From Ilumatobacteraceae bacterium (lineage in GTDB: Bacteria; Actinomycetota; Acidimicrobiia; Acidimicrobiales; Ilumatobacteraceae), in the NCBI GenBank assembly GCA_044238425.1, contig JBIIDI010000001.1, positions 1-42,156 on the forward strand: a stretch of DNA of 42,156 nucleotides. Reading direction: 5' to 3'. Position numbers and translations under genes: made by a program. Under the pieces are notes generated by a model that worked only from the letters and a program-made list of their open reading frames with translations, was not told the DNA's origin and did no database searches. This document shows, in pieces, positions 2 through 17,326 of this stretch. Position 1 is the stretch's first letter; the number at the start of each line of letters is the position of its first letter.

Positions 2-1378
2 TACGGCGGTACACCCGAGAACAGGCGTCGCTTCCTGCGCGAGGTGGTCGAATCGATCCGCAGTCACATCGGCAAGGACGTCACCGTCGGTCTGCGTCTG
101 TGCATGGACGAGCTCATGCCCGGCGGGTACGGTGCCGACTACTGCGAGTACCTCGTCGGTCGGTTCACCGACGAGGGCCTCGTCGACTACTTCAGCGTCG
201 ACGTCGGCAACAACTGGGGGGCTCCGTCGTACATCGCACCGTTCACCTTCGCCGAGGGACAGTGGGCGGCGCTCGCCGGCGAAATGAAGAAGGCGACGAA
301 GCTGCCCGTCATCTACGTCGGACGCGTGTCGACCGCCGATCGTGCCGCCGAAATCGTTGAGCAGGGCCTTGCCGACATGGTCGGCATGGTGCGCGCGAAC
401 CTCGCCGACCCGAACTTCGTGAACAAACTGAAGCGCGGACGCGCGCAGTCGATCCGACCGTGCGTCGGCGTCAACGACTGCATCCACCGCATCGTCGTCG
501 AGGGACTGCGTTTTGGTTGTGCGAGCAACCCGTTTGCCGGCCACGAGACCGACGGACCGCTCGTGCCGGCCAAGGACAAGCGCAAGGTGCTCGTCATCGG
601 TGCCGGCCCCGCCGGCCTCGAACTTGCAGGTCTCGCCGCCGAACGCGGGCACGACGTCACGCTGTGGGAGCGCAGCGACCACCTCGGCGGTCAACTCGCC
701 ATCGCCGCCCGTCTCCGCAGCAACCGCGCCTACGAGCGGTGGATTACGTGGCAGAAGTGGCGTCTCGAAGAGGCGGGTGTCGACGTGGTCACGGGCAAGC
801 ACGCCGACGTCGATTCCGTGCTTGCATTCGGTGCCGACGTCGTTGCGACGGCCACGGGTGCAAAGTTTCGTCCTCCTCTCGTTGACGGGGTCGACCTGCC
901 GCACGTGTTCACCGTGCCGCAGGCACTCGACGATCCGTCACGCCTCGGCAAGCGAGTTGTCGTCATTGCCGAGGACGACCGACCGAGTCCGCTGTCGGTT
1001 GCCGATCACCTCGCGAGTCTCGGCCACGAGGTCACGGTCGTGTATCCGACGGTGACGCCGTCACAGTTGATCGGCGCGTATTCGATCGGCGCCATGCTCG
1101 CCCGCTTCGACGAAGTCGGGGGAACGGTGGTGACGAGCACCAAGCTCGTGCGCATCGAACGCGACCATCTCGTCGTGGCGCATGCGTTCAGCTACCGCGA
1201 GCGACGCATCGACGGGGTCGACTCGGTGGTGCTCGCGACGGGCAGTCACTCGGAGAACGATCTGTACGCGCAGTTGAAGCACCGCCATCCGAACGTGCAT
1301 CTGCTTGGGGATGCGTACGCTCCGCGTCGTTGGACGTTCGCCACCCGTCAGGCGTACGAACTCGCGCGCCTCATCTGA
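2..1378 (+). CDS. NADH:flavin oxidoreductase (Old Yellow Enzyme / 2,4-dienoyl-CoA reductase family) fused to an FAD/NAD(P)-binding domain; 5' end lies outside the window
   Basis: The frame is open from nt 2 (YGGTPENRRRFLREVVESIR, an OYE TIM-barrel segment). It carries a Cys-motif region RPCVGVNDC...FGCASNP and a Rossmann GxGxxG (VLVIGAGPAGLELAG). TGA lies at 1376-1378. Confidence 0.8.
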   Translation, partial: YGGTPENRRRFLREVVESIRSHIGKDVTVGLRLCMDELMPGGYGADYCEYLVGRFTDEGLVDYFSVDVGNNWGAPSYIAPFTFAEGQWAALAGEMKKATKLPVIYVGRVSTADRAAEIVEQGLADMVGMVRANLADPNFVNKLKRGRAQSIRPCVGVNDCIHRIVVEGLRFGCASNPFAGHETDGPLVPAKDKRKVLVIGAGPAGLELAGLAAERGHDVTLWERSDHLGGQLAIAARLRSNRAYERWITWQKWRLEEAGVDVVTGKHADVDSVLAFGADVVATATGAKFRPPLVDGVDLPHVFTVPQALDDPSRLGKRVVVIAEDDRPSPLSVADHLASLGHEVTVVYPTVTPSQLIGAYSIGAMLARFDEVGGTVVTSTKLVRIERDHLVVAHAFSYRERRIDGVDSVVLATGSHSENDLYAQLKHRHPNVHLLGDAYAPRRWTFATRQAYELARLI

Positions 1379-1390
1379 CGTCGTTTGCTA

Positions 1391-1517
1391 CCGGCCAGCA
1401 ACGTGTTGCTGTGACTCTGGTCGTGTGTCAACGACCAGCAACGTGTTGATGAGATGCTCGCCGGCCGTTACCGGCGAGCAACATGTTGCTGTGACTCTGA
1501 TCGTGTGTCAACGACCA
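1391..1517. repeat. Two 47-bp direct repeats (1391-1437 and 1471-1517, 44/47 identical) flanking a related middle unit; three copies of the 14-bp palindrome AGCAACNNGTTGNT sit at 1397, 1437 and 1477
   Basis: Read directly: ccggccAGCAACGTGTTGCTgtgactctggtcgtgtgtcaacgacca versus ccggcgAGCAACATGTTGCTgtgactctgatcgtgtgtcaacgacca. The palindromes are spaced exactly 40 bp apart. The array lies between convergent 3' ends (1378 and 1508). Confidence 0.8.
1457..1478. terminator. GC-rich hairpin (8-bp stem CTCGCCGG/CCGGCGAG, 6-nt loop) in the convergent intergenic spacer
   Basis: The stem is perfectly complementary and there is no U-tract. Its position between two convergent genes fits a bidirectional terminator or RNA-stabilising hairpin. 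Confidence 0.35.
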
Positions 1518-1523
1518 GAGTCA
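1492..1523. terminator. 13-bp stem (one mismatch) / 6-nt loop hairpin whose loop holds the stop codon of the FAD-subunit gene
   Basis: TGACTCTGATCGT-gtgtca-ACGACCAGAGTCA. The minus-strand TGA (1508-1510) lies in the loop. Confidence 0.35.
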
Positions 1524-2317
1524 GTGAGCGCGTCTTCGGTGAGGACGCGCGCGAGGTGGCGGCGGTAGTCGGCCGAGGCGCGGATATCCGACGACGGTGA
1601 CGTGTCGCGATCGGCGAGTTGCGCCGCCTCGCGCACGGCTGCACCGTTGCGCAGGGCCTCTTCGACGCCCGTCGCCCGCAGCGGGATCTCACCCATGGCA
1701 CCGAGCGCGATCGCGTCACCGGCAACGGCCACCGAGACGACCGCCCAGTCCTGTGAGCGCACCGTGAACTTCTGGTAGCTCGAGCCCGCGCCCGTGACGG
1801 GAATACGGATCTCGGTGAGAATCTCGTTCGGCTGCAGAGCGGTCTGCCAGAAGCCGACGAAGAAATCCTTCGCGGTGATCGACCGCGACCCGGTCGGACC
1901 GGTGGCGACGAACGTCGCTCCGAGTGCGAGCAGGGCGACGGGAAGATCCGATGCCGAGTCACCGTGCGCCACCGATCCGCCGATCGTGCCGCGGTTGCGC
2001 ACCTGCGGATCGCCGACGAGTGCGGCGGTGCGGGCGAGCAGTGGAACGAGTCGGTTGACCTCGGGTGAGCGTTCGACGAGCACGTGACGTGTGAGTGCGC
2101 CGACGACGAGCTCGTTGCCCTCGTGGCGGATCCCCGACAAACCGGGCAACGACGCGATGTCGACGAGCACGCTCGGCGTCGCGAGGCGCAACTTCATCAG
2201 CGGAATGAGCGAGTGGCCGCCGGCGAGCAGCTTCGCCTCGTCGCCGTGCGTGGCGAGTGCCTCGTGCGCCTCGGCCATCGTGCGGGCCTTGACGTACGTG
2301 AACGGTGCGGGAATCAC
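1508..2317 (-). CDS. Xanthine dehydrogenase/CO dehydrogenase family FAD-binding medium subunit (CoxM-like)
   Basis: [21 protein letters not shown]...[19 protein letters not shown] is a typical CoxM/XdhB N-terminus. GTG at 2317 is preceded by GGAGG and overlaps the small-subunit stop (GTGA). The longer 328-aa track ORF N-terminus overlaps the upstream gene and looks non-coding. Confidence 0.85.
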
Positions 2318-2790
2318 TTCGGACCTCCTGCGTTCTCGGCAGCCCAGCGCACGGAGTTGACGATCATCTCGTAGCCCGTGCAGCGGCAGATGTTGCCCTC
2401 GAGAGCGTGGCGGATCTCGCCGTCGCTGGGGTTCGGGTTCTCGTTGAGCAGTGCGGTGCACGCCATGAGCATTCCCGGTGTGCAGTAGCCGCACTGCAGG
2501 CCGTGTTCCTGGCGGAAGCCCTCCTGTACGTTGCTCAGCCCGTCGAACGGACCGCTGAGGCCTTCGATCGTCGTCACCGACTGACCTTCGGCCTGCGCCG
2601 CGAGAACCGTACAGCTCTTCACGGCTTCGCCGTCGAGCAGCACCGTGCAGGCTCCGCAGTTCGACGTGTCGCAGCCGATGTGCGAGCCGGTGAGCCGTGC
2701 GTGCTCGCGGATGAAGTGGATGAGCAGCGTGCGATCCTCCACCTCGTGGGAGTGCTTGCGGCCGTTGATGGTGATTTCGATTCGTCTCAT
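2314..2790 (-). CDS. (2Fe-2S)-binding small subunit of a Mo-hydroxylase (CoxS-like)
   Basis: [13 protein letters not shown]..., with cluster motifs CDTSNCGAC...C and CGYCTPG...CRCTGY (158 aa). ATG at 2790 overlaps the large-subunit stop (ATGA). This is only the 3' end of the 769-aa track ORF. Confidence 0.9.
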
Positions 2791-5120
2791 CGTGCTGCTC
2801 CGTTCGTGTTGTGCGAGTTCATTGCGGCCCAGATCTTCTCGGGAAGTACCGGCATGTCGAGGTGCTCGACGCCGAGGTGGGAGAGGGCATCGACGATCGC
2901 GTTGACGATCGACGGCGGACTTCCGATCGCCCCCGATTCGCCGATTCCCTTCGCTCCGAGCGGGTTGTTCGGGCACGGTGTGTTGATTCGACCGGGGATG
3001 AAGCCGGGAAGATCGGGCGCCGAGGGAATGAGATAGTCGACGAGATTCGAGGTGATCGGCTGACCGGTGTCCGGGTCGTACTTCATCTCCTCGTACAGCG
3101 CCTGGGCGATTCCCTGTGCCGCACCGCCGTGCACCTGTCCTTCGGCAAGCAACGGATTGATCACCGTGCCGCAGTCGTCGACGAGGATCATCTTGACAAC
3201 CTTCACCTTGCCCGTGCGCCGGTCGATTTCGACGACGCAACCGTACGCACCCGAGGGGTACGAGAAGTTCGGACTCTCCTGGAAGAGACGCTCTTCGAGC
3301 GTGCCGGCCTGCAGTTCGGGCGGCAGGCGCAGGGGTTGGAAGCTTGCCAACGCAACGTCCGACCAACCGACCTTCTTGCCCGGTGAGCCCTTGACGCTGA
3401 AGGCGTCGTCGGCAACGTCGAGGTCTTCCTCGGCTGCCTCGAGCAGGTGTGCGGCAATCTTCTTCGCCCGAACGAGCAGACGCTGGCTCGCCACCTTCGT
3501 CGCCGATCCGACCATCGGCACCGAACGACTGCCCATCGTGCCGATGCCCTGAATCACCGTTGCCGTGTCGCCGTGCACGACGTTGATCCGGTCGAAGGAG
3601 ATGCCGAGTTCGTCGGCCGCAATCTGCGACACGACCGTTTCGGTGCCCTGACCGTGCGGCGATGAACCGATGAACAGCGTGCACGAGCCGTCGGGATGAA
3701 TGCGAACTTGCGCCGACTCCCACGACGCGAGGTGGCCGAATCCCTCGAGCGAGCCATTCGGGCCGAAGCCGGCAATCTCGATCCACGTCGAGAATCCGAT
3801 GCCGATGAGCGGCTTCGTCGGATCGTTGCGGTGGGCGGCTTGCTGCGCCTTCACCGCGTCGTAATCGAGCAGTCGCACGCACTCGCGCAGGGCTTCGGGG
3901 AAGTTGCCCGAGTCGTAAATGACCGCCTCGTTGTGCGTCTCGTAGGGGAACTCGTTCGGTTGGATGAAGTTGCGCATCCGCACCTCGACGGGGTCGAGTC
4001 CCGTGCGGTCGGCCACGAGGTCGACGAGGCGCTCGATCGAGTACGTCGCTTCCGGCCGGCCGGCACCGCGGTACGCCGCAACCGGTGTCGTGTTCGTGAC
4101 GACCGAGCGGAACGCGGTCTGCACCTTCGGCACCTTGTAGCAACCCGCCGCCATCCAGTTCGTGAGCACCGGCAATCCCATGCCGGTCGGATCGGGGTAT
4201 GCACCGAGATTCTGCGTGACGACGAAGCGCAGGGCCTTGATCTTGCCGTTCTTGTCGAAGCCGACTTCGAGATCGTGTTCCTGGTCGCGGCCGTGGGTCA
4301 TCTGCAGCATCGCCTCGGTGCGCGACTGCATGAACTTCACGGGGCGGCCCGTCCACTTCGAGAGCAGCGGAGTGACGAACAATTCCGGCGACCACACGAT
4401 CTTTGCGCCGAATCCGCCGCCGACCGCGGGCGCGATGACGCGGCACTGCGTGTGCGGGATATTCAACCACGCCGCCACCTTGTTGCGCAGGTGGTGCGGC
4501 GCCTGGAAGGTGGCCCACAACGTGAGGCCTTCCATCGTCCAGTCGGCGAGGCATCCCATCGGCTCGATCGGTACGACGGCGCAGCGCTGGTTGACGAGGT
4601 GCAACGTGGCGCGCATGTCGCACGACTCCATGACGCGCTCGAGGTCGTCGACCATCGGCACGGTGACGACGGCGTTCGATCCGTGGTGGGGGAACAGCAG
4701 CGGCGCGTTGGGCGCAACCGCCTCGGAGATCGTCGTGACGGCAGGCAGCACCTCGTATTCGACGCGGACGGCGGCAACTGCATCGGCTGCGGCGTAGCGA
4801 TCCTCGGCAACGACGACGGCAACGGGTTCACCCGCCCAGCGCACGCGACCCGTGGCGAGCGGCGGACGCTCGAGATCGGGAACGCCACCGGGAAGGTCGG
4901 GGTAGTCGACGAAGTCGTGCGACGTCCAGATGCCGAGAACACCGGGCATCTTCAACGCGTCGCGCGTGTCGATGGAAAGGATGTTCGCGTGCGCGTGCTC
5001 CGACACGACGAACTGGGCGAACGCGACGTTCGTCGGCTTCATGTCGTCGACGAACTGGGCGCGACCGGTGAGAAGGCGCGGGTCCTCCTTGCGCAGGACC
5101 TTGGCTCCGACGAGGCTCAT
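2787..5120 (-). CDS. Molybdopterin-binding large subunit, form-II CoxL-like (xanthine dehydrogenase family), substrate unknown
   Basis: 777 aa. N-terminus is [19 protein letters not shown]. The active-site loop reads [12 protein letters not shown] (not AYxCSFR), and GAKGIGESG is present. An AAGGAG lies about 6 nt upstream. ATGA overlaps occur at both ends. Confidence 0.9.
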
Positions 5121-6433
5121 GAGTTCTCCTTCTTTCGTCTACGTGGGAAGTAACGGCTGATCTTCTTGCGACGTTGGCGGCTCGGGCGATGATGGTGTGC
5201 CTGGGAATCCGCGGGGTCGTGCCACCACTCGCGCGCCTCGGGGGTCGAGTTCGTGCCCCAGCGCATGATGCGACCGAGCAGGTACTCGGGGCCGCTCTCC
5301 TCGCGACGCCACCAGCGACGCTGACCGCCGTGCACGCGGCGTTGGTACGTCGACAAACCGACGGAGATGATGAGTGCCAGACCGAAGAAGAGGTTTTCCA
5401 CCCATAGAACGGCGACTCCTGCCAGTTGCAGCCCCTTCACTCCACTTTGTAGCACGATCACGCTGAGGAAGGTTCCCGGAACGTTGAAGCGGCGCTTGAA
5501 CTGCGTGGAACCGAGGAACACCGCGGCAAACGCGGGGAGCAGGTACGGAGCGCCCGACTGGGCCTGGGTGGAGCCGTACTGGGAGGCGAGGAGCACGCCG
5601 GCGATCGAGGCGACGAATGCCGAGACGACCATCGCCGCGAAGATGTACCGGTCGGTGTGGATGCCGGCGAGCCGCGCGGCGTCGCGACCGCCACCGGTGG
5701 CGAAGAAGTACCGCCCGACGGGTGTGTGCTCGATGACGAACCAGGCGATGACGGCGAGCACGACGGCGATGATCACCGAGGTGCGCAGACCGAAGGCGAA
5801 TTCGGTCGTCAGCGACAGGAACGAATCGGGCATGCCGAGAATCGACCGGTTGCCCGACCGCCACACGGCGAAGGCAGTGAGGATCGAGCTCATTCCCAAC
5901 GTGGCGATGAACGAGTCGATGCGTATCTTCACGATGAGGAACGCGTTGATCGCACCGATGACGAGTCCGAGCAGCAACGCGGCACCGATTGCGGGCCACA
6001 CGGGCCACGCGCGGTCGACGAGCAACCACGACACGACGACTGCCGATGCCGAAATCGTCGCTGCGATCGAAAGGTCGAACACGCCGCTGGCCAGGGGGAT
6101 GATGAGGCCGATCGCCACGACGATGAGAATTGCCTGTTGGTTGATGACCGAGCGGTGGGTGAGCCAGGTCAGCCAGGTGTCGGGCACCCACGCGGTGTAG
6201 ATGATCCACGTCGCGGCATAGAGATAGAGCACACCGATGTTGCGCGGGTGGAGCTTGCGCCACTTGAAGGGCGATCGACGTGTGTCGAAACGGCTGTCGA
6301 TCTTCTCGCGGCGCTCGACGCGGTCGTACTTCAGTCGCCAGCGTCGCGTGATCTTGTTCTGCTTGAGGACGAGTCGTGCCTCGACTTCCCCGGTGGCCGG
6401 ATCGACCTTCAGCGGACCTTCGGCATTGCTCAT
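5117..6433 (-). CDS. ABC transporter permease, ribose/xylose (CUT2) type, with basic N- and C-terminal extensions
   Basis: The core (VINQQAILIVVAIGLIIPLASGVFDLSIAA...) resembles RbsC/AraH-type permeases. ATG at 6433 overlaps the ATPase stop (ATGA) and the stop overlaps the coxL-like ATG. There is a ~65-aa Lys/Arg-rich N-tail and a ~75-aa Arg/Trp-rich C-tail. Confidence 0.8.
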   Translation of the reverse strand: MSNAEGPLKVDPATGEVEARLVLKQNKITRRWRLKYDRVERREKIDSRFDTRRSPFKWRKLHPRNIGVLYLYAATWIIYTAWVPDTWLTWLTHRSVINQQAILIVVAIGLIIPLASGVFDLSIAATISASAVVVSWLLVDRAWPVWPAIGAALLLGLVIGAINAFLIVKIRIDSFIATLGMSSILTAFAVWRSGNRSILGMPDSFLSLTTEFAFGLRTSVIIAVVLAVIAWFVIEHTPVGRYFFATGGGRDAARLAGIHTDRYIFAAMVVSAFVASIAGVLLASQYGSTQAQSGAPYLLPAFAAVFLGSTQFKRRFNVPGTFLSVIVLQSGVKGLQLAGVAVLWVENLFFGLALIISVGLSTYQRRVHGGQRRWWRREESGPEYLLGRIMRWGTNSTPEAREWWHDPADSQAHHHRPSRQRRKKISRYFPRRRKKENS

Positions 6434-8064
6434 GTCGTCTCCTTCGTGCGCGTTGTCAGGGAAGCGTTCGTCGTTGCGGGTGCGTCGTCACGAATGACGG
6501 TGAAGCCGAGCTTGCGCTCGACCACCCGCGTTCCGGCGCGCAAACTCGTGGCGCCGAGCGTTTCGGTGACGATGCGGCTCGTCGTGAGGTTCGATCCCGA
6601 GAGCTCGCAGGCGATCATTCCGCCGCGCAGAACGAGTACGCGGTCGCACAGTCGGACGAGTTCCTCGGGGTCCGGTGAGGTGACGATGACGGCGCCGCCG
6701 TTGCGGGCGAATTCGTCGATCTTCTCGTAGATCGCGGTTTTGGCACCGACGTCGACGCCCTGGGTCGGTTCGTCGAGGATGAGCACCTTCGGGTTCGTGC
6801 GCAGCCAGCGCGCGAGCACCGATTTTTGTTGGTTGCCGCCGGAGAACTTCTCGAGTCGACGGCGCAGAATCGGTGGCTCGACCTGCAGTCGCTCGACCCA
6901 GTCCTGGACGTCCTCGCGCAGCGGCGTCATTGCGATCTTCGGGCCGCGGCGGTGCGTGGACAGACGAGGCAGCGGCACGTGTTCCTCGAGTCGGTCCGAA
7001 GCGATGAGGCCGAGCCGCTTGCGGTCGGCGGGCACGAGTGCCATGCCGGCCTTCACCGATTCGTGCGGATGGGCGAACACCTTCTTCTTGTTCACGAGAA
7101 CCTTGCCGGCGAAGCGCGGCGTTGCGCCGAACACGGCGGTGCCGATTTCGTCACGACCCGACCCGACGAGTCCGGCGAAGCCGACGACCTCGCCGGCGCG
7201 CACCTTGAAAGTGACTCCCTTCAGCGTCATGCCGAAGACGTTCTCCACCTCGAGCGTGTTCAGGCCGAAGTCCTTGTCGTCGTGCTGCACGTGTGCGCCG
7301 ATGTCACGCCCGACCATGAGTCGCACGAGGCTTGCGGTGTCGTGGTCCGACGCACGTTCGCCGGCGGCGACGACCTTGCCGTCGCGCAGAACGGTGATGC
7401 GATCGGCGAGAGCCAGCACCTCGGGCAGTACGTGGCTGACGAAGATCACTCCCGCGCGGCGTTCGGTGAGTCGGCGCACTTCGCGGAACAGGGCATCGAC
7501 CTCACCGCGGTTCAGTGACGCAGTGGGTTCGTCGAGGATGAGCAAGCCGGGAGCGGAGTCGTCCCAGTCCTGCAAGGCGCGCACGATGGCAACGGCGGTG
7601 CGCTCCGCCGCGGTGAGTGTGGCGACGGGGCTGCGCACGTCGGGCGCAAGACCGAATCCGAGCAGCAATTCCTGGCAACGCTTTGCCTCGCGCCGCCAGC
7701 GGATGTTCTTCAGTGCGCCGGTGTCGAAGCCGCGTCCGAGCGCGAGGTTCTCGATGGTGGACAGTGTGGGGACGAGACCGAGATCCTGGTGAACGATGCG
7801 GATGCGGTCACGCTGGTCGTGGCGCGGATGCCACAGATCGATCGGTTCGCCGTTGAACCGCACTCGTGCGCCGTGGTCGGCCTTGACGTACCCGGCGATC
7901 GTCTTGATGAGAGTGGATTTGCCCGAGCCGTTCTGGCCGATGAGGGCGTGCACCTCGCCGGGCATCACCTGCAACGAGGCCTCGACAAGTGCGCGCTGAC
8001 CGGGGTACGTCTTCGACAGCGTCTCGACGTCGAGGACGGGTGTGACCGTTTGTCGTTCTGACAT
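6430..8064 (-). CDS. Sugar-type ABC transporter ATP-binding protein with two fused NBDs (RbsA/MglA-like)
   Basis: NBD1 has GQNGSGKST and LLILDEPTASL. NBD2 has GLVGSGRDE, FSGGNQQK and VLILDEPTQGVD. I chose ATG at 8064 (MSERQTV...) because AAGGAGGT lies upstream; the track ORF start at 8193 was rejected. Confidence 0.88.
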   Translation of the reverse strand: MSERQTVTPVLDVETLSKTYPGQRALVEASLQVMPGEVHALIGQNGSGKSTLIKTIAGYVKADHGARVRFNGEPIDLWHPRHDQRDRIRIVHQDLGLVPTLSTIENLALGRGFDTGALKNIRWRREAKRCQELLLGFGLAPDVRSPVATLTAAERTAVAIVRALQDWDDSAPGLLILDEPTASLNRGEVDALFREVRRLTERRAGVIFVSHVLPEVLALADRITVLRDGKVVAAGERASDHDTASLVRLMVGRDIGAHVQHDDKDFGLNTLEVENVFGMTLKGVTFKVRAGEVVGFAGLVGSGRDEIGTAVFGATPRFAGKVLVNKKKVFAHPHESVKAGMALVPADRKRLGLIASDRLEEHVPLPRLSTHRRGPKIAMTPLREDVQDWVERLQVEPPILRRRLEKFSGGNQQKSVLARWLRTNPKVLILDEPTQGVDVGAKTAIYEKIDEFARNGGAVIVTSPDPEELVRLCDRVLVLRGGMIACELSGSNLTTSRIVTETLGATSLRAGTRVVERKLGFTVIRDDAPATTNASLTTRTKETT

Positions 8065-8140
8065 CTCCGTACCTCCTTTGCGTGAGTTCGTCGCCACGAT
8101 TCCGAGCGCCAGATCCGGTGAATTCGATGCTGGCTTGCAC

Positions 8141-8171
8141 AAGGGCCGCCGGGAAAATCCCGGCGGCCCTT
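8141..8171 (-). terminator. Perfect 13-bp stem / 5-nt loop hairpin between the binding-protein and ATPase genes (intercistronic attenuator or stabiliser)
   Basis: AAGGGCCGCCGGG-aaaat-CCCGGCGGCCCTT. No U-tract follows on the minus strand. The placement after the SBP gene is typical of ABC operons. Confidence 0.45.
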
Positions 8172-8219
8172 GGCAGTGATGTTGCAACGACACCGTGCGG
8201 TGCCGCTAGCCGCGTGGGA

Positions 8220-9413
8220 TCAGCTGAGTCCCCAGCGCTGCTTGAACAGGTCCTGGAATCCTTCGATTCCGGGCCACAGCGCGGTCGGATCCTTCACCGT
8301 GGGTTGCGTGAGGATCTGGCGGGGCAGACCGTTGAGACCGATGTCGGTCTTGTCGAAGATGCCCTCGATGGCCGGCGACTTCGAGATCGTGCCGTCGGTG
8401 AACAGCGTGATCGCGATGTCGACTGCGCGCCAGCCGAGCAGACCCGAGGCGAGTGCGAACTCACCGGTCTGGTGCTTGCCGTCGGCAATGAACTGGAAGT
8501 TCATCGGTGAGCCGGCCTGCGACACGGCCTTCGCCTGGTCGACGAGTCCCGCAGCTTCGAGTGCTTCCGGAACGCCGAACATCATGCCGCCGAATGCGTA
8601 GGCAATGAAGTCGAGGTTCGGGTCGGCCTGGAGAGCCGACACCATCTGGCCGGGCAGGTTCGTTCCGAGGTCGGCGAGGCCGATCTCCTGGAACTTCACC
8701 GTGCACTCGGGGCAAATGAGTTCGATCTCGGCTTTGAAGCCGTCCTGCACGAGTGACAACACGGGGAACACCGGCAGACCGACGAACAGGATGTTCTTGT
8801 TCGGGCTGTTGGCGTACGCGTAGTCGGCCATGACCACTCCGTAATAGAAGTAGTCGTCACCGGACAGGATGTTCACGGCGATGCCTTTGCCCGGTTCGAA
8901 CGGCTCGGGAATTGACCACGAGATGACCGGGATGTTCATCGACTCGAGCGTGTCGAGCTGGGTCTGGAACCATTCGCGCGGGTTGCCGCTCGTCATGACG
9001 ACGTCAGGCTTCGCCGCGATGGCCGCATCGAAGGCCGCCGCGACGGTGTCGGGCGTGTCCTGGTGCGACGTGGTCTTGATCGTCCAGCCCTTCGAGGCCA
9101 GTGCCGCTACTGCCTCTTCGACTCCGGAGCCGATCTCAGCACATACCGGCACGGAGCAGGTGATGTAGAACACGGTCTTGTTTTCCGGAACTGACGTCGG
9201 CGCCGGGCCCAAGTCGAGCTCGGTGACGGGCTGCGAAAGTGCCTCAACGCGCGCGAGCGCGATGTCGGCGGGGCTTTCACCCGTTGCTTCCGCAGTGGTC
9301 TCTTCGGTCGCCACGGTGTCTTCCGTGGCAGTGTCGTCGCTCGAGCCACCACAGGCCGTGACAACCACGAGCCCGAGTGCCGTGAGCGCGGCGACGAGTG
9401 TCTTGCGTTTCAT
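8220..9413 (-). CDS. ABC transporter substrate-binding lipoprotein (type I periplasmic-binding fold, sugar-binding-like)
   Basis: MKRKTLVAALTALGLVVVTAC|GGSS is a lipoprotein signal with a lipobox Cys, followed by an acidic/Thr linker and a PBP-like body. ATG at 9413 has AAGGGGGA upstream. The protein also contains CSVPVC and CPEC motifs. Confidence 0.8.
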   Translation of the reverse strand: MKRKTLVAALTALGLVVVTACGGSSDDTATEDTVATEETTAEATGESPADIALARVEALSQPVTELDLGPAPTSVPENKTVFYITCSVPVCAEIGSGVEEAVAALASKGWTIKTTSHQDTPDTVAAAFDAAIAAKPDVVMTSGNPREWFQTQLDTLESMNIPVISWSIPEPFEPGKGIAVNILSGDDYFYYGVVMADYAYANSPNKNILFVGLPVFPVLSLVQDGFKAEIELICPECTVKFQEIGLADLGTNLPGQMVSALQADPNLDFIAYAFGGMMFGVPEALEAAGLVDQAKAVSQAGSPMNFQFIADGKHQTGEFALASGLLGWRAVDIAITLFTDGTISKSPAIEGIFDKTDIGLNGLPRQILTQPTVKDPTALWPGIEGFQDLFKQRWGLS

Positions 9414-9444
9414 GTGTATGGGTCCCCCTTGTTGCGGTTGTGTA

Positions 9445-9484
9445 ACCGTGGCTTGACCGTACCGTGCCACGGGTCACCGTGCCA
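9445..9484 (-). promoter_or_regulatory. Candidate operator: ACCGTGGC (9445-9452) plus two exact ACCGTGCCA copies (9461-9469 and 9476-9484); inverted pair CCGTGGC/GCCACGG (9446-9452 / 9466-9472)
   Basis: Read directly, 30-70 nt upstream of the SBP start codon in the 147-nt leader/promoter region. Confidence 0.3.
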
Positions 9485-9560
9485 AACTCGAGAACGGACC
9501 GGGACCTTGCCTTCGGACTCCGGCGAGGTGGGTGTCCGAGCCCCGGCTACTGCCTGTTCG

Positions 9561-10121
9561 CTACAGCCACGTGCTGCTCAGCGCGTCACGTCGGGCAGTC
9601 CATTCCTCGCTCGTACACCCGAAACGGTCGTGGTCTTCCCACACGCCGTTGATCTCGAGGAATCCGAGCGCTCGACCCTCGTGGCGAAAGCCCACCTTCT
9701 CCATCACGCGCAAGCTGTTGCGGTTGCGCGGAATGATGCACACCTCGACGCGGTGCAAGCGCAAGTCGTCGAAGGCGAACTTCGTGATGACGACGACGCC
9801 CTCGGCGATGTATCCGTTGCCGGCGCGGTCACGGTCGATCCAGTAACCGATCGTGCCCGATTGCATCGCGCCGCGCATGACGTTGTTCAGGTTCACCTCG
9901 CCGACGAACGCCGAATCGACGAAGACGCCGAAGGAGTACGCATGTCCCCCCGCGCGCTCACGTTCACGGGCCACGCAGCGCTGCCGGAACGCGGTGCGGT
10001 CGAGGGCGGGATCGGAGGTGCCTGCGGGACGTGTCGGTTCCCAGGCGGTCAACCACTCACCGTTGCGGCGTCGCACCTCGCCGTACGCCTCGAAGTCCGA
10101 TTCGGTGAGCGGACGCAGCAT
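9561..10121 (-). CDS. GNAT family N-acetyltransferase (RimJ/RimL-like)
   Basis: MLRPLTESDFEAYGEVRRRN..WL..WEP...GYWIDRDRAGNGYIAEG...LHRVEVCIIPRNRNSLRVMEKVGFRHEG is a RimJ-like pattern. The start is uncertain: ATG 10121 is chosen, with GTG 10175 as an alternative. Confidence 0.8.
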   Translation of the reverse strand: MLRPLTESDFEAYGEVRRRNGEWLTAWEPTRPAGTSDPALDRTAFRQRCVARERERAGGHAYSFGVFVDSAFVGEVNLNNVMRGAMQSGTIGYWIDRDRAGNGYIAEGVVVITKFAFDDLRLHRVEVCIIPRNRNSLRVMEKVGFRHEGRALGFLEINGVWEDHDRFGCTSEEWTARRDALSSTWL

Positions 10122-11618: not shown

Positions 11619-12488
11619 TCAGAGCAGCAGCACCGCCGCGATGACGACGCCGGCGATGACGATGACGGCGGGCACGAGGCGCTTCACCATCGTCGATCCT
11701 GCCGTCTCCAGGAGGTTGATCGGCTCTGCGGCCGGACCGTCGATTTTGCGGATCGTCGGTGCGGTTTGCGCAGGCGTCGACGGTGTTGCTGTCGACTGTG
11801 TCCCTGTTGTCGGTGTCGCTGTCACCGGTGCAGGGGGTGTCGACGAAACGGCGGCCGACGTCGGTGTTGGCACAGACGACGTAGTCGACACAGACGAAGT
11901 AGTTGGCACAGTGGGTGCAGCGGGTGTCGGTGCAGATGCCGGCGGGGGAGTCGGTGCCGACGCCGGTGCTGCGGACGCGGTTGCCGCGGGAGTTGGTGCC
12001 GCCGCTGGGGTGGCGGTGGTGCCGCTCGATGCTCCGATACCGCCCGAGGCAATGAGCGTGTTGAGGTTGTCGACGAATTGGGCAAGCAGCTTGTCGCTGA
12101 CGTCGGCGAGAGCACCGCGACCGAACTGGGCGACCTTTCCCGAAATCGTGAGGTCGGTGTGCACGTTGCAGCGCGTTGACGTTGCCGACTCCGACGTCAA
12201 CGACGCCGTGATGATGGCCGACGCGTTGCCCTTGCCACCCGTGTCACGACCTTCACCCTTCAACGCCGCCGTGTACGTCGCGTCGTTGCGCTCGATGAAC
12301 GACGCCTGACCCTTGAATTGGGCGACGACCGGGCCGACCTTCACGCCGACGTGACCGCGGTACGTGTCACCCTCGACTTCGGTCAACTGCGCGCCGGGCA
12401 GGCACGGTGCGATGCGCTCGAGGTCGGTGAGAATGCGCCATGCGTCGGCGATCGGCACCGCCACCGTGAATTCGTGTCGCAGGTCCAT
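11619..12488 (-). CDS. SRPBCC / CoxG family protein with a Pro-Thr-Ala-Ser-rich linker and a C-terminal transmembrane anchor
   Basis: MDLRHEFTVAVPIADAWRILTDLERIAPCLPGAQL... is CoxG-like for about 145 aa. A ~100-aa low-complexity linker follows, then LVPAVIVIAGVVIAAVLLL*. GAAGGAG lies upstream of ATG 12488. Confidence 0.85.
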   Translation of the reverse strand: MDLRHEFTVAVPIADAWRILTDLERIAPCLPGAQLTEVEGDTYRGHVGVKVGPVVAQFKGQASFIERNDATYTAALKGEGRDTGGKGNASAIITASLTSESATSTRCNVHTDLTISGKVAQFGRGALADVSDKLLAQFVDNLNTLIASGGIGASSGTTATPAAAPTPAATASAAPASAPTPPPASAPTPAAPTVPTTSSVSTTSSVPTPTSAAVSSTPPAPVTATPTTGTQSTATPSTPAQTAPTIRKIDGPAAEPINLLETAGSTMVKRLVPAVIVIAGVVIAAVLLL

Positions 12489-12530
12489 GGACTACTCCTT
12501 CGATCTGTCTCGTCGATTGCCCGGTCGTCG

Positions 12531-13145
12531 TCACTGCGGAGACGTTCGCCCGCTGATGCGGGTGAGATCGTCCCTCGTGTCGACATCCGTCGGCGTTCCG
12601 CGACAGGCTACTTCGCACACGATTTCGGCTTCCTTACGCAGCAGCTGACGGGCGCCTTCGTCACCGACGACGGGAATGTCGGACCACCAGCGTCGGGCGA
12701 TGCGCACGGGATGACCGCGCTCTCCGTCGTACGTTGCCACGGCGAGTTCGCACGCGCAGTCGGCGAGACGTCGCCACGCGTCCGGATCGATGCGCGGTTG
12801 ATCGGCGAGACCGACGACGACGACGTCCAGCCCCCGCTCGGCCGCGGCGTCGAATCCCGCGTGCAGAGACGTCGCCATCCCGTCTGCCCATTGCGGGTTG
12901 TTCACCACGGAGACCGGCACCCGTGACGCCGCCGGCAGCGCGGCGACGACGCGGCTGACTTCGTCGGAGAAATCGTCGGCGCCGACGACGACGATGACGG
13001 GGCCGATGGCGCTGGCGAGGACGCTCTCCAGTGCGTGCGCGAATACGCTCGAGCCGTCGAGTGAGGCGCGCAGCTTGTGTCCCGGGCCGGCGAATCTCCG
13101 CCCGGCGCCGGCGGCGAGGAGCACGGCACACACCTCTGTGGTCAT
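12531..13145 (-). CDS. MobA/MocA-like nucleotidyltransferase (molybdenum cofactor cytidylyl/guanylyl-transferase family)
   Basis: The N-terminal AVLLAAGAGRRF loop is typical of NTP_transf_3 proteins. The start is ATG 13145 or GTG 13151. Confidence 0.75.
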   Translation of the reverse strand: MTTEVCAVLLAAGAGRRFAGPGHKLRASLDGSSVFAHALESVLASAIGPVIVVVGADDFSDEVSRVVAALPAASRVPVSVVNNPQWADGMATSLHAGFDAAAERGLDVVVVGLADQPRIDPDAWRRLADCACELAVATYDGERGHPVRIARRWWSDIPVVGDEGARQLLRKEAEIVCEVACRGTPTDVDTRDDLTRISGRTSPQ

Positions 13146-13215
13146 CGCCACAGCCTGCCAGACCCCTATGAAATCGCGACCTGACGGGGATCGGGCGGAA
13201 TAGGGAGGCCCAAAT

Positions 13216-13254
13216 ATGACGAAATGATGACGAAAGTCCCGTAGGCTGTCATCA
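13216..13254 (+). promoter_or_regulatory. Repeat/inverted-repeat element in the leader of the NlpC/P60 gene
   Basis: ATGACGAAA occurs twice with an 11-nt period (13216-13224 and 13227-13235). An inverted repeat TGATGAC (13225-13231) / GTCATCA (13248-13254) sits in the only AT-rich patch of the divergent intergenic region. Confidence 0.3.
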
Positions 13255-13318
13255 CATCGTTATCCAGACCGTCCCGGTGACGGCCATCCCGATCTCGCCC
13301 CACCCGCCCGGAGGACCG

Positions 13319-14017
13319 ATGCCCACCAACTCGAGCTGCCACCGCCACAACCCCGCGCAACGAACATGCGTTCGCCATCGCCTCGTTCTCGTCGCTGCCG
13401 TCGTGCTCGGCAGCATCGCCGGTCTCGTCGCGGTGCGCCCGGGCGAGGCGCGGGCGGTTGCAATCCCCGAGCATTCAACGGAGTGGATCGCGCGCATGGC
13501 GTTCGACATCACGACCGAACTGCGTCGCGCGGGTGACGTGCCCCGCGCCGAACTGCGTGACGTGGCCGCACGCGCCATTTCCGAGACCGCGAGCCTCGTC
13601 GCGTACCACCTCGACGCCGATCCCGTGTCGTTGCGTCGCGCTTGGCTCGATGCGCCGTTGGAACGCAGGATCGCGGTGTTCTCCGCCCTCAGCCAACTCG
13701 GTGTGCCGTACGAACTGAACGGTGACGCACCGTTCGTCGGTCTCGACTGTTCGGCGCTGACGAAGTACGCATGGGGCCAGGCGGGTGTCGACCTCGATCG
13801 CGCGAGTGCGTCGCAGTACGCACGCGGACGGCGCATCGGCGTCGATCGTCTCCGCGCCGGCGACCTCGTGTGGTATCCGGGTCACATCATGATGTCGCTC
13901 GGGGTGCCCGAGCTCATCGTGCACGCCCGATCCGGCGCGCGAACGGTGGAAATCCATCGCATCGCCGACGAACGTCTCGACTGGATGCGCTGGATCGATC
14001 CGACGACGCGATCCTGA
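13319..14017 (+). CDS. NlpC/P60 family cell-wall peptidase with N-terminal signal/anchor
   Basis: GLDCSALTKYAWGQAG...GDLVWYPGHIMMSLG...IVHA is an NlpC/P60 Cys-His-His arrangement, preceded by the hydrophobic segment LVLVAAVVLGSIAGLVAV. ATG at 13319 follows GGAGGA; GTG 13277 is an alternative start. Confidence 0.8.
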   Translation: MPTNSSCHRHNPAQRTCVRHRLVLVAAVVLGSIAGLVAVRPGEARAVAIPEHSTEWIARMAFDITTELRRAGDVPRAELRDVAARAISETASLVAYHLDADPVSLRRAWLDAPLERRIAVFSALSQLGVPYELNGDAPFVGLDCSALTKYAWGQAGVDLDRASASQYARGRRIGVDRLRAGDLVWYPGHIMMSLGVPELIVHARSGARTVEIHRIADERLDWMRWIDPTTRS

Positions 14018-14031
14018 CGCGCAACGCGTCA
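14015..14031. terminator. 17-bp palindrome TGACGCG-caa-CGCGTCA containing the stop codons of both convergent genes
   Basis: The plus-strand TGA (14015-14017) and minus-strand TGA (14029-14031) form the outer base pairs of a 7-bp stem. Confidence 0.3.
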
Positions 14032-14832
14032 GTGAATCGGCCCGCTCGTCGCCGACAGCGGCCGCGCGGAACGACCCGAACGCGCGGCAACGATTTCCGC
14101 GCAGATGGAAATCGCCGTTTCTTCCGGCGTACGGGCGCCGATGTCGAGCCCGATCGGTGAGTGCAGACGGGAAATCTCCGCGTCGCTGGTCCCCACTTCG
14201 CGCAGCCGTTCGAGCCGCTTGTCATGCGTGCGGCGGCTGCCCATGACGCCGATGTAGCCGACGTTGCCGGCGAGCGCGCCGCGGATCGCGGGGACGTCGA
14301 ACTTCGGGTCGTGGGTGAGTACGCACACCGCGTCGCGCGAACCGAGATCGCCGCCGACCCGGTCGAACAACTCGTTCGGCCAGGCGACGACGAGTTCGTC
14401 GGCCATCGGAAATCGTTTCGGGGTGGCGAACACCTTGCGCGCGTCGCACACGGTGACGTGGTAGCCGAGCACTTTCGCGACGCGCGCGAGAGCGGCGGTG
14501 AAGTCGACGGCACCGAAAATGATCATCCGCGGCGGCGGGGCGAACGATTCGATGAACACGCGCACGACGGTCTCACCGACGAGGTCTGCGGGGGTCGTCT
14601 CGCCGCGCGGCCCGTAACTGCGCACGCCGTTGCGCCCGGCGTCGAGTTCACCGAGTGCGTCGCGGGTCGCGACGCGGTCGAGTTCGACGTTGCCGAGCGA
14701 ACCCTGCGTCGAGCCGTCTCCCGTGACGAGCAGCGATGCCCCGCACCGTTCGCCGTCGAGCACGGTGAGAAGGGCGACCGGTCTGCGGTCGCGGACGGCG
14801 CTCGCGAGCGCGGAAACGTGGTCGTCGCTCAC
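14029..14832 (-). CDS. XdhC/CoxF-like Mo-enzyme maturation protein (XdhC_CoxI plus Rossmann-like domain)
   Basis: RPVALLTVLDGERCGASLLV..., RMIIFGAVDFTAALARVAKVLGYHVTVCDAR and IGLDIGARTPEETAISICAEI match the family pattern. The start is GTG at 14832. Confidence 0.85.
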   Translation of the reverse strand: MSDDHVSALASAVRDRRPVALLTVLDGERCGASLLVTGDGSTQGSLGNVELDRVATRDALGELDAGRNGVRSYGPRGETTPADLVGETVVRVFIESFAPPPRMIIFGAVDFTAALARVAKVLGYHVTVCDARKVFATPKRFPMADELVVAWPNELFDRVGGDLGSRDAVCVLTHDPKFDVPAIRGALAGNVGYIGVMGSRRTHDKRLERLREVGTSDAEISRLHSPIGLDIGARTPEETAISICAEIVAARSGRSARPLSATSGPIH

Positions 14833-14839
14833 CGTTTGC

Positions 14840-15157
14840 TCACCACGTGTAGCGCTGCATGAAGAGGTGGATCGTGCCGCCGCACGTGAGGCCGACGGCG
14901 AATGCCTCGTCGTCGCTGTAGCCGAAGCTGATGAGTTCGGGTGGGGAATCGTTGCGCAGCATCTCCATGGCGCGCTCGACGACGGCCCCCTCGACGCAAC
15001 CGCCGCTCACCGATCCGACGACGTCACCGTCGACGGTGACCGCCATGGCGGCCCCGGGAAGGCGTGGTCCGGACCCTTCGATGTCGACGACGCGGGCGAC
15101 GACGCACGCGGTGCCGCTCTCGCGCCAGCGTTCGAGTTCGTCGAGGATTTCGCGCAT
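14840..15157 (-). CDS. Stand-alone XdhC_CoxI N-terminal-domain protein
   Basis: MREILDELERWRESGTACVVARVVDIEGSGPRLPGAAMAV...GSVSGGCVEGAV, 105 aa. ATG at 15157 overlaps the VWA stop by 1 nt. Confidence 0.8.
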   Translation of the reverse strand: MREILDELERWRESGTACVVARVVDIEGSGPRLPGAAMAVTVDGDVVGSVSGGCVEGAVVERAMEMLRNDSPPELISFGYSDDEAFAVGLTCGGTIHLFMQRYTW

Positions 15158-16266
15158 CAGGACTCCGCCGACATGACCATAGCGAGGCGTTCGAGCGCAT
15201 CAACCGAGTGGCCCTCGACGAACGCGTCGACGTGCGGCAGTGCGGCGGCCATTCCGCGCGCGAGAGGTGCGTATCCGGGTCCGGCCTTCAACGGGTTCAC
15301 CCACACGACCCGGTGTGCAACGCGACCGAGGCGTTGCATCTGCTCGGCGAGCACGTTCGGGTCGCCGCGATCCCACCCGTCGGAGAGGATGACGACGATT
15401 GCGCCGCGGGCCATTCCGCGCACTCCCCACCGGTCGTTGAACTGGCGCAGCGTCTCCCCGAGTCGCGTACCGCCGCTCCAGTCCTCGACGCGCCCCGATG
15501 CGCGGTTGAGGGCCCGATCGGGATCGCGGCTCGACAACTCGCGGGTGACGCGCGTGAGACGCGTGCCGAGCGTGAAGGTCTCGACGCGTTGACGCCCGAC
15601 GACGGCCGAGTGCATGAACTGCAGCAGTGCCCGCGCGTACGGCTCCATCGAACCCGAAATGTCGAGCAGCACGACGAGTCGGCGCAGGCGTTGTGCCGGC
15701 TTCCTGTGCAGTCGGCGCACCGGTTCGCCGTGGTGTCGCAGGGTCGCGCGCACCGTGCGGCGCACGTCGGTGTGGCGCGTGCGACCCGACGCGCGTTCGA
15801 GTCGCAGCGCCCGTCGCGGCGGTCCGGCGAAGCGCAACCGCGACATCAAGCGGCGCGAATCCCGCAATTCGTCCGCCGTGTACTCGGCGAAGTCCTTGCG
15901 GCGCAGCGTTTCGAGTGCGGAGAAGCGCAGCGTCGTCTGTTCGCGGTCGCTGCGTCGCGAGCCGTTGCCGTCGGAGTCGTCGTCGAGGTCGACGGCAAGC
16001 GTTTGCGGGCGTTGCACCGGCGCGTTGCGATCGTCAAGGGCGCGGTGGTCGCCCTCCCAGAACGCGCGGAACGCCTTGTCGTAGAGGTCGAGATCCTCCG
16101 GTCTGCGCACGAGCGATCCGCGTCCGGCCCAGTACACGGCATCGCGTTCGGTCACGCCGACGACGCCGAGGCACTGCACGAACGTGAGGATCGAATCGAG
16201 GGGCACGGCGATTCCGGCGCCGCGCAGCACGCGCCCGAAGGCGACGGCCATGTTTTCCGGTGTCAC
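15157..16266 (-). CDS. VWA domain protein (CoxE-like)
   Basis: The MIDAS motif VVLLDISGSM is present, with a CoxE-like N-terminus AFGRVLRGAGIAV. The start is GTG 16266, or ATG 16251 as an alternative. Confidence 0.85.
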   Translation of the reverse strand: MTPENMAVAFGRVLRGAGIAVPLDSILTFVQCLGVVGVTERDAVYWAGRGSLVRRPEDLDLYDKAFRAFWEGDHRALDDRNAPVQRPQTLAVDLDDDSDGNGSRRSDREQTTLRFSALETLRRKDFAEYTADELRDSRRLMSRLRFAGPPRRALRLERASGRTRHTDVRRTVRATLRHHGEPVRRLHRKPAQRLRRLVVLLDISGSMEPYARALLQFMHSAVVGRQRVETFTLGTRLTRVTRELSSRDPDRALNRASGRVEDWSGGTRLGETLRQFNDRWGVRGMARGAIVVILSDGWDRGDPNVLAEQMQRLGRVAHRVVWVNPLKAGPGYAPLARGMAAALPHVDAFVEGHSVDALERLAMVMSAES

Positions 16267-16330
16267 GCGTCGTTCCCGATCACGATGCCCGACACGTCAT
16301 CCGGACATCGGCCTCGCGCCGCGCCGGACG

Positions 16331-17260: not shown

Positions 17261-17326
17261 CTCGCCAGCATACGACGGGTGTCGTTGACGACGTTTCCGA
17301 CGGTGACCGGCGGTCTACCCTGAGGA

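Follow-up and report, generated by a model that had tools for sequence, protein, structure and literature searches.

What does an enzyme annotated as a carbon monoxide dehydrogenase (CODH) oxidize when its genes lie directly behind those of a solute importer? This question is raised by a stretch of 42,156 nucleotides (nt) with ~66% G+C, hereafter the window, from contig JBIIDI010000001.1 of an Ilumatobacteraceae bacterium (assembly GCA_044238425.1). Positions 1508-9413 of the window carry six minus-strand genes encoding, in order of reading, a substrate-binding protein (SBP), an ATPase with two nucleotide-binding domains (NBDs), a permease, and the large (L), small (S) and medium (M) subunits of a CoxL-like molybdenum hydroxylase. 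Our analyses make it fairly probable that the six genes represent a conserved operon, specific to Acidimicrobiia, that couples the uptake of one small organic solute to its oxidation by the molybdenum enzyme. The components are ordinary members of their families, and the logic of an importer joined to a catabolic enzyme is familiar; what is new is their conserved combination across a bacterial class. An initial annotation of the DNA, made from its letters, had proposed such an import-then-oxidize route and knew of no characterized pathway of this architecture. Literature searches were likewise without a match, revealing neither a CoxL-like enzyme described behind a CUT2 importer nor a pathway with such a layout.

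Gene order and its conservation in Acidimicrobiia

The six open reading frames are co-directional and tightly packed, with coding-type G+C content at third codon positions. Their coordinates and strand, the 155-nt spacer and the overlaps given in the initial annotation all match the sequence, and its treatment of the six genes as one unit was borne out. The spacer (8065-8219) separates the SBP gene from the ATPase gene, and the start codons of these two genes are preceded by AAGGGGGA and AAAGGAGG, respectively. The remaining junctions are overlaps: ATGA is shared by ATPase and permease (6433-6430), by permease and L (5120-5117) and by L and S (2790-2787), and GTGA is shared by S and M (2317-2314). 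At each of these four junctions, a Shine-Dalgarno-like purine run is located inside the upstream gene, including AAGGAG at 5131-5126 within the permease tail and AGGAGG upstream of the S/M overlap. An independent promoter before L, which would have broken up the proposed unit, did not emerge from a sigma-70 scan of 1300-9700: no promoter-like site was found with the E. coli-type model, which is a weak and uninformative test in an actinobacterium.

To define relatives of the operon, we used an SBP alignment (A1) as the query for a scan of one genome per GTDB species. The scan yielded 66 loci, all from Acidimicrobiia and mostly from metagenome-assembled genomes (MAGs) of Ilumatobacteraceae sampled in lakes, which were then searched with the six window proteins by tblastn. 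Among loci with enough downstream sequence for the gene in question, SBP, ATPase, permease and L followed one another on the same strand in 43 of 43, S was present in 42 of 42, and M lay directly after S in 16 of 40, sharing the same 4-nt overlap with S in all 16. Independent gene calls and Pfam searches on metagenome contigs gave the same order in three of three contexts seeded with L homologs of 72-74% identity and in two further SBP-seeded look-ups. The arrangement is thus not unique to this genome, a point that the initial annotation had left to a neighborhood survey. Median identities to the window proteins were 60% for SBP, 64% for ATPase, 66% for permease, and 73% for both L and S. L is the best-conserved component, and gene order stays the same where SBP identity falls to 55%. 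Several operon-carrying MAG records (L002, L005, L006, L015, L016, and L066 in our locus labels) bear the titles "uncultured Bifidobacterium sp.," "Bifidobacterium breve" or "Gammaproteobacteria bacterium"; given that their SBPs are 57-98% identical to that of Ilumatobacteraceae, and that identity to the query was 69-98% for the few such records noted in the species scan, these taxonomic labels are probably wrong.

The unit remains intact in surroundings that vary. Cox accessory genes accompany it in the window's clade, a CoxG gene lies immediately upstream of the SBP gene in L008-L014, and genes for cytochrome P450s, short-chain dehydrogenases/reductases (SDRs), ThuA-like proteins and TrmB-family regulators are found elsewhere. 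Outside the window's clade, accessory genes flank the unit on either side in varying order. One or two orthologous P450s adjoin the operon in 39 of 70 loci, SDRs in about 30, a TrmB-family regulator in 27, a ThuA-like gene in 22, and a small ferredoxin in 12, with occasional LEH/SnoaL, xylose-isomerase-like TIM-barrel, amidohydrolase-2, PhyH, and kinase genes. The persistence of the ABC-L-S core while the accessory set changes is our strongest argument for a direct functional link between importer and hydroxylase.

We also surveyed the junctions in the relatives. The ATPase/permease, L/S, and S/M junctions are usually overlaps of 4 nt or 1 nt. The permease and L genes overlap only in the window, L002, L003, L005, and L048, and are separated elsewhere by a gap of ~27-130 nt. 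Translational coupling of the importer to L, as initially annotated, thus holds for the window and a few lineages and fails in most relatives. By this comparison, the overlap is a derived state in a few lineages, whereas adjacency and strand are universal. In the window's clade, the permease tail is ~20 residues longer and reaches the L start codon, and L005 shows conservation of this extension in its protein sequence. The clade gained the overlap in this way, through growth of the permease tail into a former spacer.

The importer and the molybdenum enzyme

Protein families were assigned with Pfam, and the NCBIfam equivalog cut-off served as the criterion for orthology. SBP matched Peripla_BP_4 (PF13407, 7.9e-20) and no NCBIfam model. 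Its product begins with MKRKTLVAALTALGLVVVTAC, a signal peptide with the lipobox VTAC, which identifies it as a lipoprotein. An AlphaFold2 model of SBP (predicted local distance difference test score 82) has a cluster-B, ribose-binding-like fold. The best Foldseek matches of the model are ribose- and monosaccharide-binding proteins with 14-21% identity, among them RbsB structures at 1e-14 with target-normalized TM-scores of 0.73-0.81; at the sequence level, solved structures gave a single marginal match (5dte, E = 0.005). The ATPase carries two ABC_tran stretches on one polypeptide and aligns end to end with AraG, XylG, and RbsA; its best NCBIfam match is AraG (383 bits vs. a cut-off of 689), and XylG and RbsA also score below cut-off. 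The permease matched BPD_transp_2 (PF02653, 3.6e-36) over residues 96-357, with AraH as its best NCBIfam model (130 bits vs. a cut-off of 378) and RbsC also far below cut-off. No importer component reaches any NCBIfam equivalog cut-off, the ATPase and permease scoring at roughly half or less. Across the operon family, permeases have about 415-440 amino acids (aa) and ATPases about 535-590 aa.

Pfam and fold thus agree with the ribose/xylose-type layout (lipoprotein SBP, tandem-NBD ATPase, one permease) that had been read from the sequence. The named CUT2 importers (TC 3.A.1.2; RbsABC, AraFGH, and XylFGH) share with the operon a cluster-B SBP, a two-NBD ATPase and a BPD_transp_2 permease, as well as an SBP gene that comes first and is followed by a stem-loop. 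They differ in that the operon SBP is only 14-21% identical to solved binders, in that its ATPase and permease fall below the cut-offs and bear family-specific extensions, and in that the operon transporter precedes a molybdenum hydroxylase rather than sugar-catabolic genes. Judged by all three architectural features, tandem-NBD ATPase, BPD_transp_2 permease, and cluster-B SBP, the transporter is a CUT2 member and not an orthologue of a named system. A metal or molybdate importer was considered and rejected, since both SBP and permease are of the CUT2 type and not of the kind found in ModABC-type systems.

Each importer protein has features of its own. The ATPase ends in an extension, ETLGATS..R...VIRDD, that is conserved throughout the operon family. 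The cytoplasmic C-terminal tail of the permease lies outside the Pfam permease model and contains a near-invariant motif, VHGGQRRWWRREESGPEYLLGR..WG...WWxDPxDxxxHHxKP, when the permeases of 11 lineages are aligned; used by itself as a protein query, the tail retrieved just three fragments, which was uninformative. Four cysteines of SBP (residues 86, 91, 234, and 237) are invariant across the SBP family in alignment A1. They occur in the motifs C-S-V-P-V-C, which directly follows the first beta strand, and C-P-x-C, which precedes the strand formed by residues 238-243. The first pair maps, with low confidence, to the loop where ribose-binding proteins contact their ligand. The four cysteines could pair into two disulfides or make up a site for a metal or for redox chemistry.

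The enzyme genes encode the heterotrimeric domain set of the xanthine dehydrogenase family of molybdenum hydroxylases. L contains Ald_Xan_dh_C, MoCoBD_1 and MoCoBD_2, S contains Fer2 and Fer2_2, with the cysteine motifs visible in its translation, and M contains FAD_binding_5 and CO_deh_flav_C. The catalytic Gln (FQAPH) and Glu (GIGESG) of L align with the corresponding segments of 1n5w, 1ffu, and 1t3q. Residues 349-355 of L read AYRGAGR in place of the copper-binding AYRCSFR loop, so that the Cu-ligand Cys is absent and the form I CODH signature, (A/S)YRCS(F/L)R, was not found. L scores 590 bits against TIGR02416, the CODH large-subunit model (cut-off 991), and 573 bits against NF040766 (cut-off 950).

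The AYRGAGR motif had led to the label "form II," which denotes a putative aerobic CO dehydrogenase (King and Weber, 2007, as cited in PMC13240472 and PMC7645674). The motif stands, and so do two further likenesses to form II CoxSLM: the three-subunit Mo/FeS/FAD build and routine misannotation as CODH, the name "carbon-monoxide dehydrogenase large subunit" being the one that JGI gives to homologs of L. The label itself is less secure, because AYRGAGR also occurs in molybdenum hydroxylases other than form II (PMC13240472) and the typical form II order is coxSLM (PMC7645674). By contrast, the order is L-S-M here, L-S-(M) in all relatives, and L-S-M in the wider clade of a second large subunit of the window, L2 (described below); L is below cut-off, importer genes are attached, and the form II label is borne out by the motif but not by the gene order.

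Among enzymes with characterized organic substrates, quinoline 2-oxidoreductase (1t3q), 6-hydroxypseudooxynicotine dehydrogenase (7dqx), and the Sulfolobus glyceraldehyde oxidoreductase (4zoh; NF041018-20) share the L, S, and M domains and the cytoplasmic hydroxylation of C-H bonds with water. A YRGxG-type loop is common to L and these enzymes, AYRGAGR aligning with AYRGVG in 1t3q. L matches them with E values of 1e-127 to 1e-114, which is weaker than its match to CODH and comes with identity too low for orthology. No characterized member of the 1t3q, 7dqx, and 4zoh groups is known to lie behind a CUT2 importer, though no exhaustive search was made. The top NCBIfam models of the three subunits are those of Sulfolobus glyceraldehyde dehydrogenase (NF041018/19/20), all below cut-off at 639 vs. 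790, 263 vs. 350, and 216 vs. 290 bits. L2 receives the same match with the same score. In pairwise scores, L is nearer to CODH and quinoline oxidoreductase than to 4zoh, and the closest solved structures are CODHs. The glyceraldehyde dehydrogenase match was accordingly rejected as a clue to the substrate. Overall, every NCBIfam equivalog cut-off was missed and the literature offered no match, in keeping with the view that no orthologue has been assigned to a known pathway.

Proposed fate of the imported solute

We envisage the following course of events. By homology, the lipoprotein SBP would capture the solute, and the CUT2 importer, with a homodimeric permease and the tandem-NBD ATPase, would bring it into the cell. 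A hairpin after the SBP gene may keep the SBP message above the rest of the transcript. L-S-M would then hydroxylate a C-H bond of the solute, or of a compound closely derived from it, with water, passing electrons from Mo-molybdopterin cytosine dinucleotide through two [2Fe-2S] clusters to FAD; the domains and catalytic residues for this reaction are present, and we infer that the solute is the substrate. The predicted cofactor and a sulfurated Mo center fit the MocA-like and XdhC genes upstream, which lend indirect support. Electrons would presumably enter the respiratory chain, a step that probably takes place at the membrane and is assisted by CoxG. In most relatives, judging from their gene neighborhoods, a TrmB-type regulator, P450s, SDRs, and a ThuA-like protein may extend the pathway.

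The initial annotation had named a sugar-like and an N-heterocyclic solute as options; a sugar-like or glycoside-derived one seems somewhat more likely than an N-heterocycle. The former is favored by the class of the transporter and the fold of SBP, by the TrmB regulator, and by the neighbors that resemble ThuA and xylose isomerase, and no conserved neighbor in the relatives' loci points to N-heterocycle catabolism. The P450, ferredoxin, and SDR neighbors suggest an oxidizable, partly non-polar moiety or O-methyl groups. A furoyl-CoA-dehydrogenase-like role, raised by an AMP-binding ligase and an enoyl-CoA hydratase beside the operon in L069, was rejected as a general explanation because such neighbors occur in two or three loci only.

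Several observations weigh against coupled uptake and oxidation, or against the solute class that we favor. The operon lacks M in 24 of 40 relatives, the permease/L overlap is lineage-specific, and the P450, SDR, and TrmB neighbors of relatives are absent from the 42-kb window. Co-transcription of the six genes is suggested by their spacing only. The ribose-binding residues of E. coli ribose-binding protein seem unconserved in the SBP family, a lead only, since it comes from a profile alignment of very low probability. The "glyceraldehyde dehydrogenase" match is generic, given that L2 matches the same model. Riboflavin, B6 vitamers, and nucleosides are examples of non-sugars that also enter cells through CUT2 systems, and one B6 model is among the NCBIfam matches of the ATPase, which makes the sugar-like assignment weak.

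Of the import-then-oxidize route, the conserved link between importer and hydroxylase stood up, and the imported solute is the presumed substrate of the enzyme. The TrmB/P450/SDR/ThuA island in most relatives means that the molybdenum enzyme may act on an intermediate of the pathway and not necessarily on the imported solute. In such a pathway, P450s and SDRs would first modify the solute, for example by hydroxylation and then conversion to an aldehyde, and L-S-(M) would be an aldehyde oxidoreductase. The frequency of adjoining P450, SDR, and ferredoxin genes speaks for this possibility, as do the aldehyde-oxidizing Sulfolobus enzyme as best NCBIfam model of all three subunits and "aldehyde oxidoreductase maturation factor" as best model of the XdhC gene. 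We nevertheless regard it as rather unlikely, since neither the window nor its closest relatives, all of which retain ABC-L-S-M, have a P450, SDR, or ThuA module in reach, the Sulfolobus match is sub-cut-off and generic for AYRGAGR-type large subunits, and L is pairwise nearer to CODH and quinoline oxidoreductase than to 4zoh. It is distinctly less probable that the two modules are adjacent without any substrate link, the transporter importing an ordinary sugar and L-S-M being co-regulated or hitch-hiking. The link between substrate and solute is indeed deduced, the transporter resembles a generic sugar system by family and fold, and the permease/L gaps of most relatives could hold promoters. 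Mere adjacency, however, is hard to reconcile with an order and strand kept in 43 of 43 species despite diverging SBPs and reshuffled flanks, with a window transporter that lacks an accompanying sugar kinase, isomerase, or aldolase, and with overlapping stop and start codons that fuse both modules in four lineages including the window's.

It is very unlikely that L-S-M is truly a form II CO dehydrogenase, or oxidizes some other trace gas, and that the transporter is irrelevant to it. JGI annotates homologs of the large subunit in this way, CODHs are its closest solved structures, and CoxD, CoxE, and CoxG-like genes are nearby. Yet the Cu-binding Cys loop is absent, the bit score falls far short of the 991 required by TIGR02416, and the L-S-M order is neither coxMSL nor coxSLM (PMC7645674). 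The activity of form II enzymes was itself described as unresolved in a June 2026 survey (PMC13240472). A sponge-symbiont study concluded in general terms that most CoxL homologs have unknown organic substrates (PMC8941161). Finally, a gas needs no importer, and in all relatives examined this clade is firmly tied to a dedicated importer of high affinity, which argues against a gas substrate. The enzyme annotated as a CO dehydrogenase thus probably oxidizes an imported organic solute instead.

This conclusion matters because CoxL-like genes that lack the Cu loop rank among the most abundant oxidoreductase genes without an assigned role in environmental genomes and are widely annotated as CO dehydrogenase; such genes should not be counted as CO-oxidation potential in metagenome surveys. 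SBP offers a practical handle for de-orphanizing the enzyme, as its ligand would lead to the substrate or a precursor of it. The hosts are Ilumatobacteraceae (freshwater acIV lineage) that recur in lake metagenomes, e.g., in Lake Mendota MAGs, and the solute may therefore be a relevant share of the turnover of freshwater dissolved organic matter. Coupled uptake and oxidation could extend to a physical transport-oxidation unit, in which the Arg/Trp-rich permease tail and CoxG jointly dock L-S-(M) at the membrane, and an abundant dissolved organic compound is oxidized on entry with electrons passing straight to the respiratory chain. We consider this extension improbable. If true, it would represent energy scavenging by abundant freshwater acIV Actinobacteria, analogous to trace-gas oxidation with an organic solute in place of the gas, and would provide the first physiological substrate for a CODH-like "orphan" molybdenum hydroxylase clade.

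Non-coding elements, flanking genes, and a second large subunit

The spacer between the SBP and ATPase genes contains the perfect hairpin of the initial annotation, whose stem, reported as 13 bp, is at least that long and extends to 15 bp (Table 1). Its arms are CAAGGGCCGCCGGGA and TCCCGGCGGCCCTTG, its folding energy is -38.5 kcal/mol, and the entire spacer has a folding z score of -4.6 relative to shuffled sequences. No U-run follows the hairpin, which is thus not a canonical intrinsic terminator; an intrinsic-terminator scan of 1300-9700 found terminator-like sites at chance level, an uninformative result in an actinobacterium. Hairpins just as strong (-30 to -39 kcal/mol) and unrelated in sequence are present in the same spacer of L005, L008, L010-L014, L025, L048, and L064, that is, in at least six lineages besides the window's, and some relatives have a short spacer or none, so the hairpin is not universal. 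Strong hairpins of unrelated sequence at one location argue that the structure has been selected and is not an accident of sequence. The hairpin is probably a 3'-end stabilizer or partial terminator that lifts SBP expression above that of the membrane components.

Upstream of the operon, ~70 nt abutting the SBP start codon are conserved in the closest relatives as GAGTTTGGCnCGGTGACC...GGCACGGTACGGTCAA..CACGGTTACACAACCGCAACAAGGGGGACCC (aligned with L001-L003 and L005). This conserved block (9414-9480, minus strand) includes repeated GGCACGGT / CCACGGT motifs and an imperfect GTGAC-N-GGCAC palindrome, in place of which L005 has a perfect GTGTC-N4-GACAC. The motifs and palindrome could be an operator, although no regulator gene adjoins the operon in the window. 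Searches with Rfam, covering the whole window and including a sensitive scan of 8000-9700, found no riboswitch (e.g., Moco motif) or known RNA, the sole matches being sub-threshold and located on the spacer hairpin.

At the other end of the operon, a convergent OYE/FadH-like gene lies downstream of M, and three palindromic repeat units separate the two. They consist of the core CAGCAACRTGTTGCTG plus TGACTCTGRTCGTGTGTCAACGACCAG, matched six times where chance predicts 0.03, and have a folding energy of -71.7 kcal/mol (z = -6.3). The first unit extends over the M stop codon, and the core occurs nowhere else in the window. The repeats are likely a bidirectional terminator that marks the 3' end of the operon.

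Table 1. Positions of the operon genes, non-coding elements, and cox-like neighbors in the window
Feature	Positions	Strand	Description
SBP gene	8220-9413	-	397 aa; ATG at 9413; stop at 8222-8220
Tandem-NBD ATPase gene	6430-8064	-	544 aa; ATG at 8064
Permease gene	5117-6433	-	438 aa; single CUT2 permease, BPD_transp_2
Permease cytoplasmic C-terminal tail	5120-5353	-	residues 361-438
Large subunit (L) gene	2787-5120	-	777 aa; molybdopterin-binding
Small subunit (S) gene	2314-2790	-	158 aa; two [2Fe-2S] domains
Medium subunit (M) gene	1508-2317	-	269 aa; FAD-binding; GTG start
Intergenic region upstream of SBP	9414-9560	-	likely promoter and 5' untranslated region
Hairpin in SBP/ATPase spacer	8140-8172	-	perfect 15-bp GC-rich stem, 3-nt loop
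Palindromic repeats	1389-1518		three 40-nt-spaced units, strong hairpins; between convergent M and OYE/FadH-like genes
CoxG	11619-12488	-	Pfam, NCBIfam
MocA-like cytidylyltransferase	12531-13259	-	Pfam, NCBIfam
NlpC/P60 gene	13220-14017	+	unrelated, inside maturation block
XdhC	14029-15006	-	Pfam, NCBIfam
CoxE-like VWA	15157-16296	-	Pfam, NCBIfam
CoxD/MoxR AAA+ ATPase	16331-17314	-	Pfam, NCBIfam
ABC-2 permease	18101-18925	-	last of three ABC-2 genes
ABC-2 permease	18922-19719	-	after DrrA-like ATPase
DrrA-like ABC-2 ATPase	19691-20650	-	GTGA overlap with L2
L2, AYRGAGR-type large subunit	20647-22935	-	41% identical to L

Upstream of the operon and on the same strand are, in order, a GNAT gene, ppx, and genes for CoxG, the MocA-like protein, XdhC, the CoxE-like protein, and CoxD/MoxR. 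The maturation and anchoring genes among them (11619-17314) probably serve L-S-M. The CoxG-like protein has 289 aa, with the CoxG/SRPBCC domain at residues 6-146 and a C-terminal half that matches neither Pfam nor NCBIfam. Beyond the maturation block are an SDR gene (plus strand), three ABC-2 transporter genes, and L2. No regulator, P450, or sugar-catabolic gene adjoins the operon in the window, the rest of which is housekeeping (mfd, mazG, pth, rplY, prs, glmU, ksgA, tatD, metG, and rsmI).

L2 was followed through relatives found in a metagenome scan (L074-L093); an exact-sequence look-up of L2 gave no record. Relatives with 60-66% identity have the order L2, three ABC-2 genes, S2, and M2, and more distant ones have L2-S-M without a transporter. 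The position of the ABC-2 genes in the former indicates an exporter-type ABC cassette inside a second cox-like cluster. S2 and M2 do not follow the cassette in the window and its closest relatives, L074 and L075 (17327-20650 compared with L077-L085). The window thus has two L genes and, in the operon, one S and one M; L2 may share these subunits or be inactive. Like the operon, the L2 cluster combines an AYRGAGR-type large subunit with overlapping ABC genes in an arrangement conserved in related Acidimicrobiia. Unlike the operon, its transporter is of the ABC-2/DrrA-like exporter type, has no SBP, and in relatives lies between L2 and S/M.

Together, L2, the ABC-2 genes, coxD, coxE, xdhC, mocA, coxG, ppx, the GNAT gene, and the six-gene operon form a cox-like island (1508-22935) inside a conserved actinobacterial housekeeping block that runs from mfd, mazG, a probable eno, and divIC to ppx. 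Synteny of the block upstream of L2 extends to relatives with as little as 60% L2 identity.

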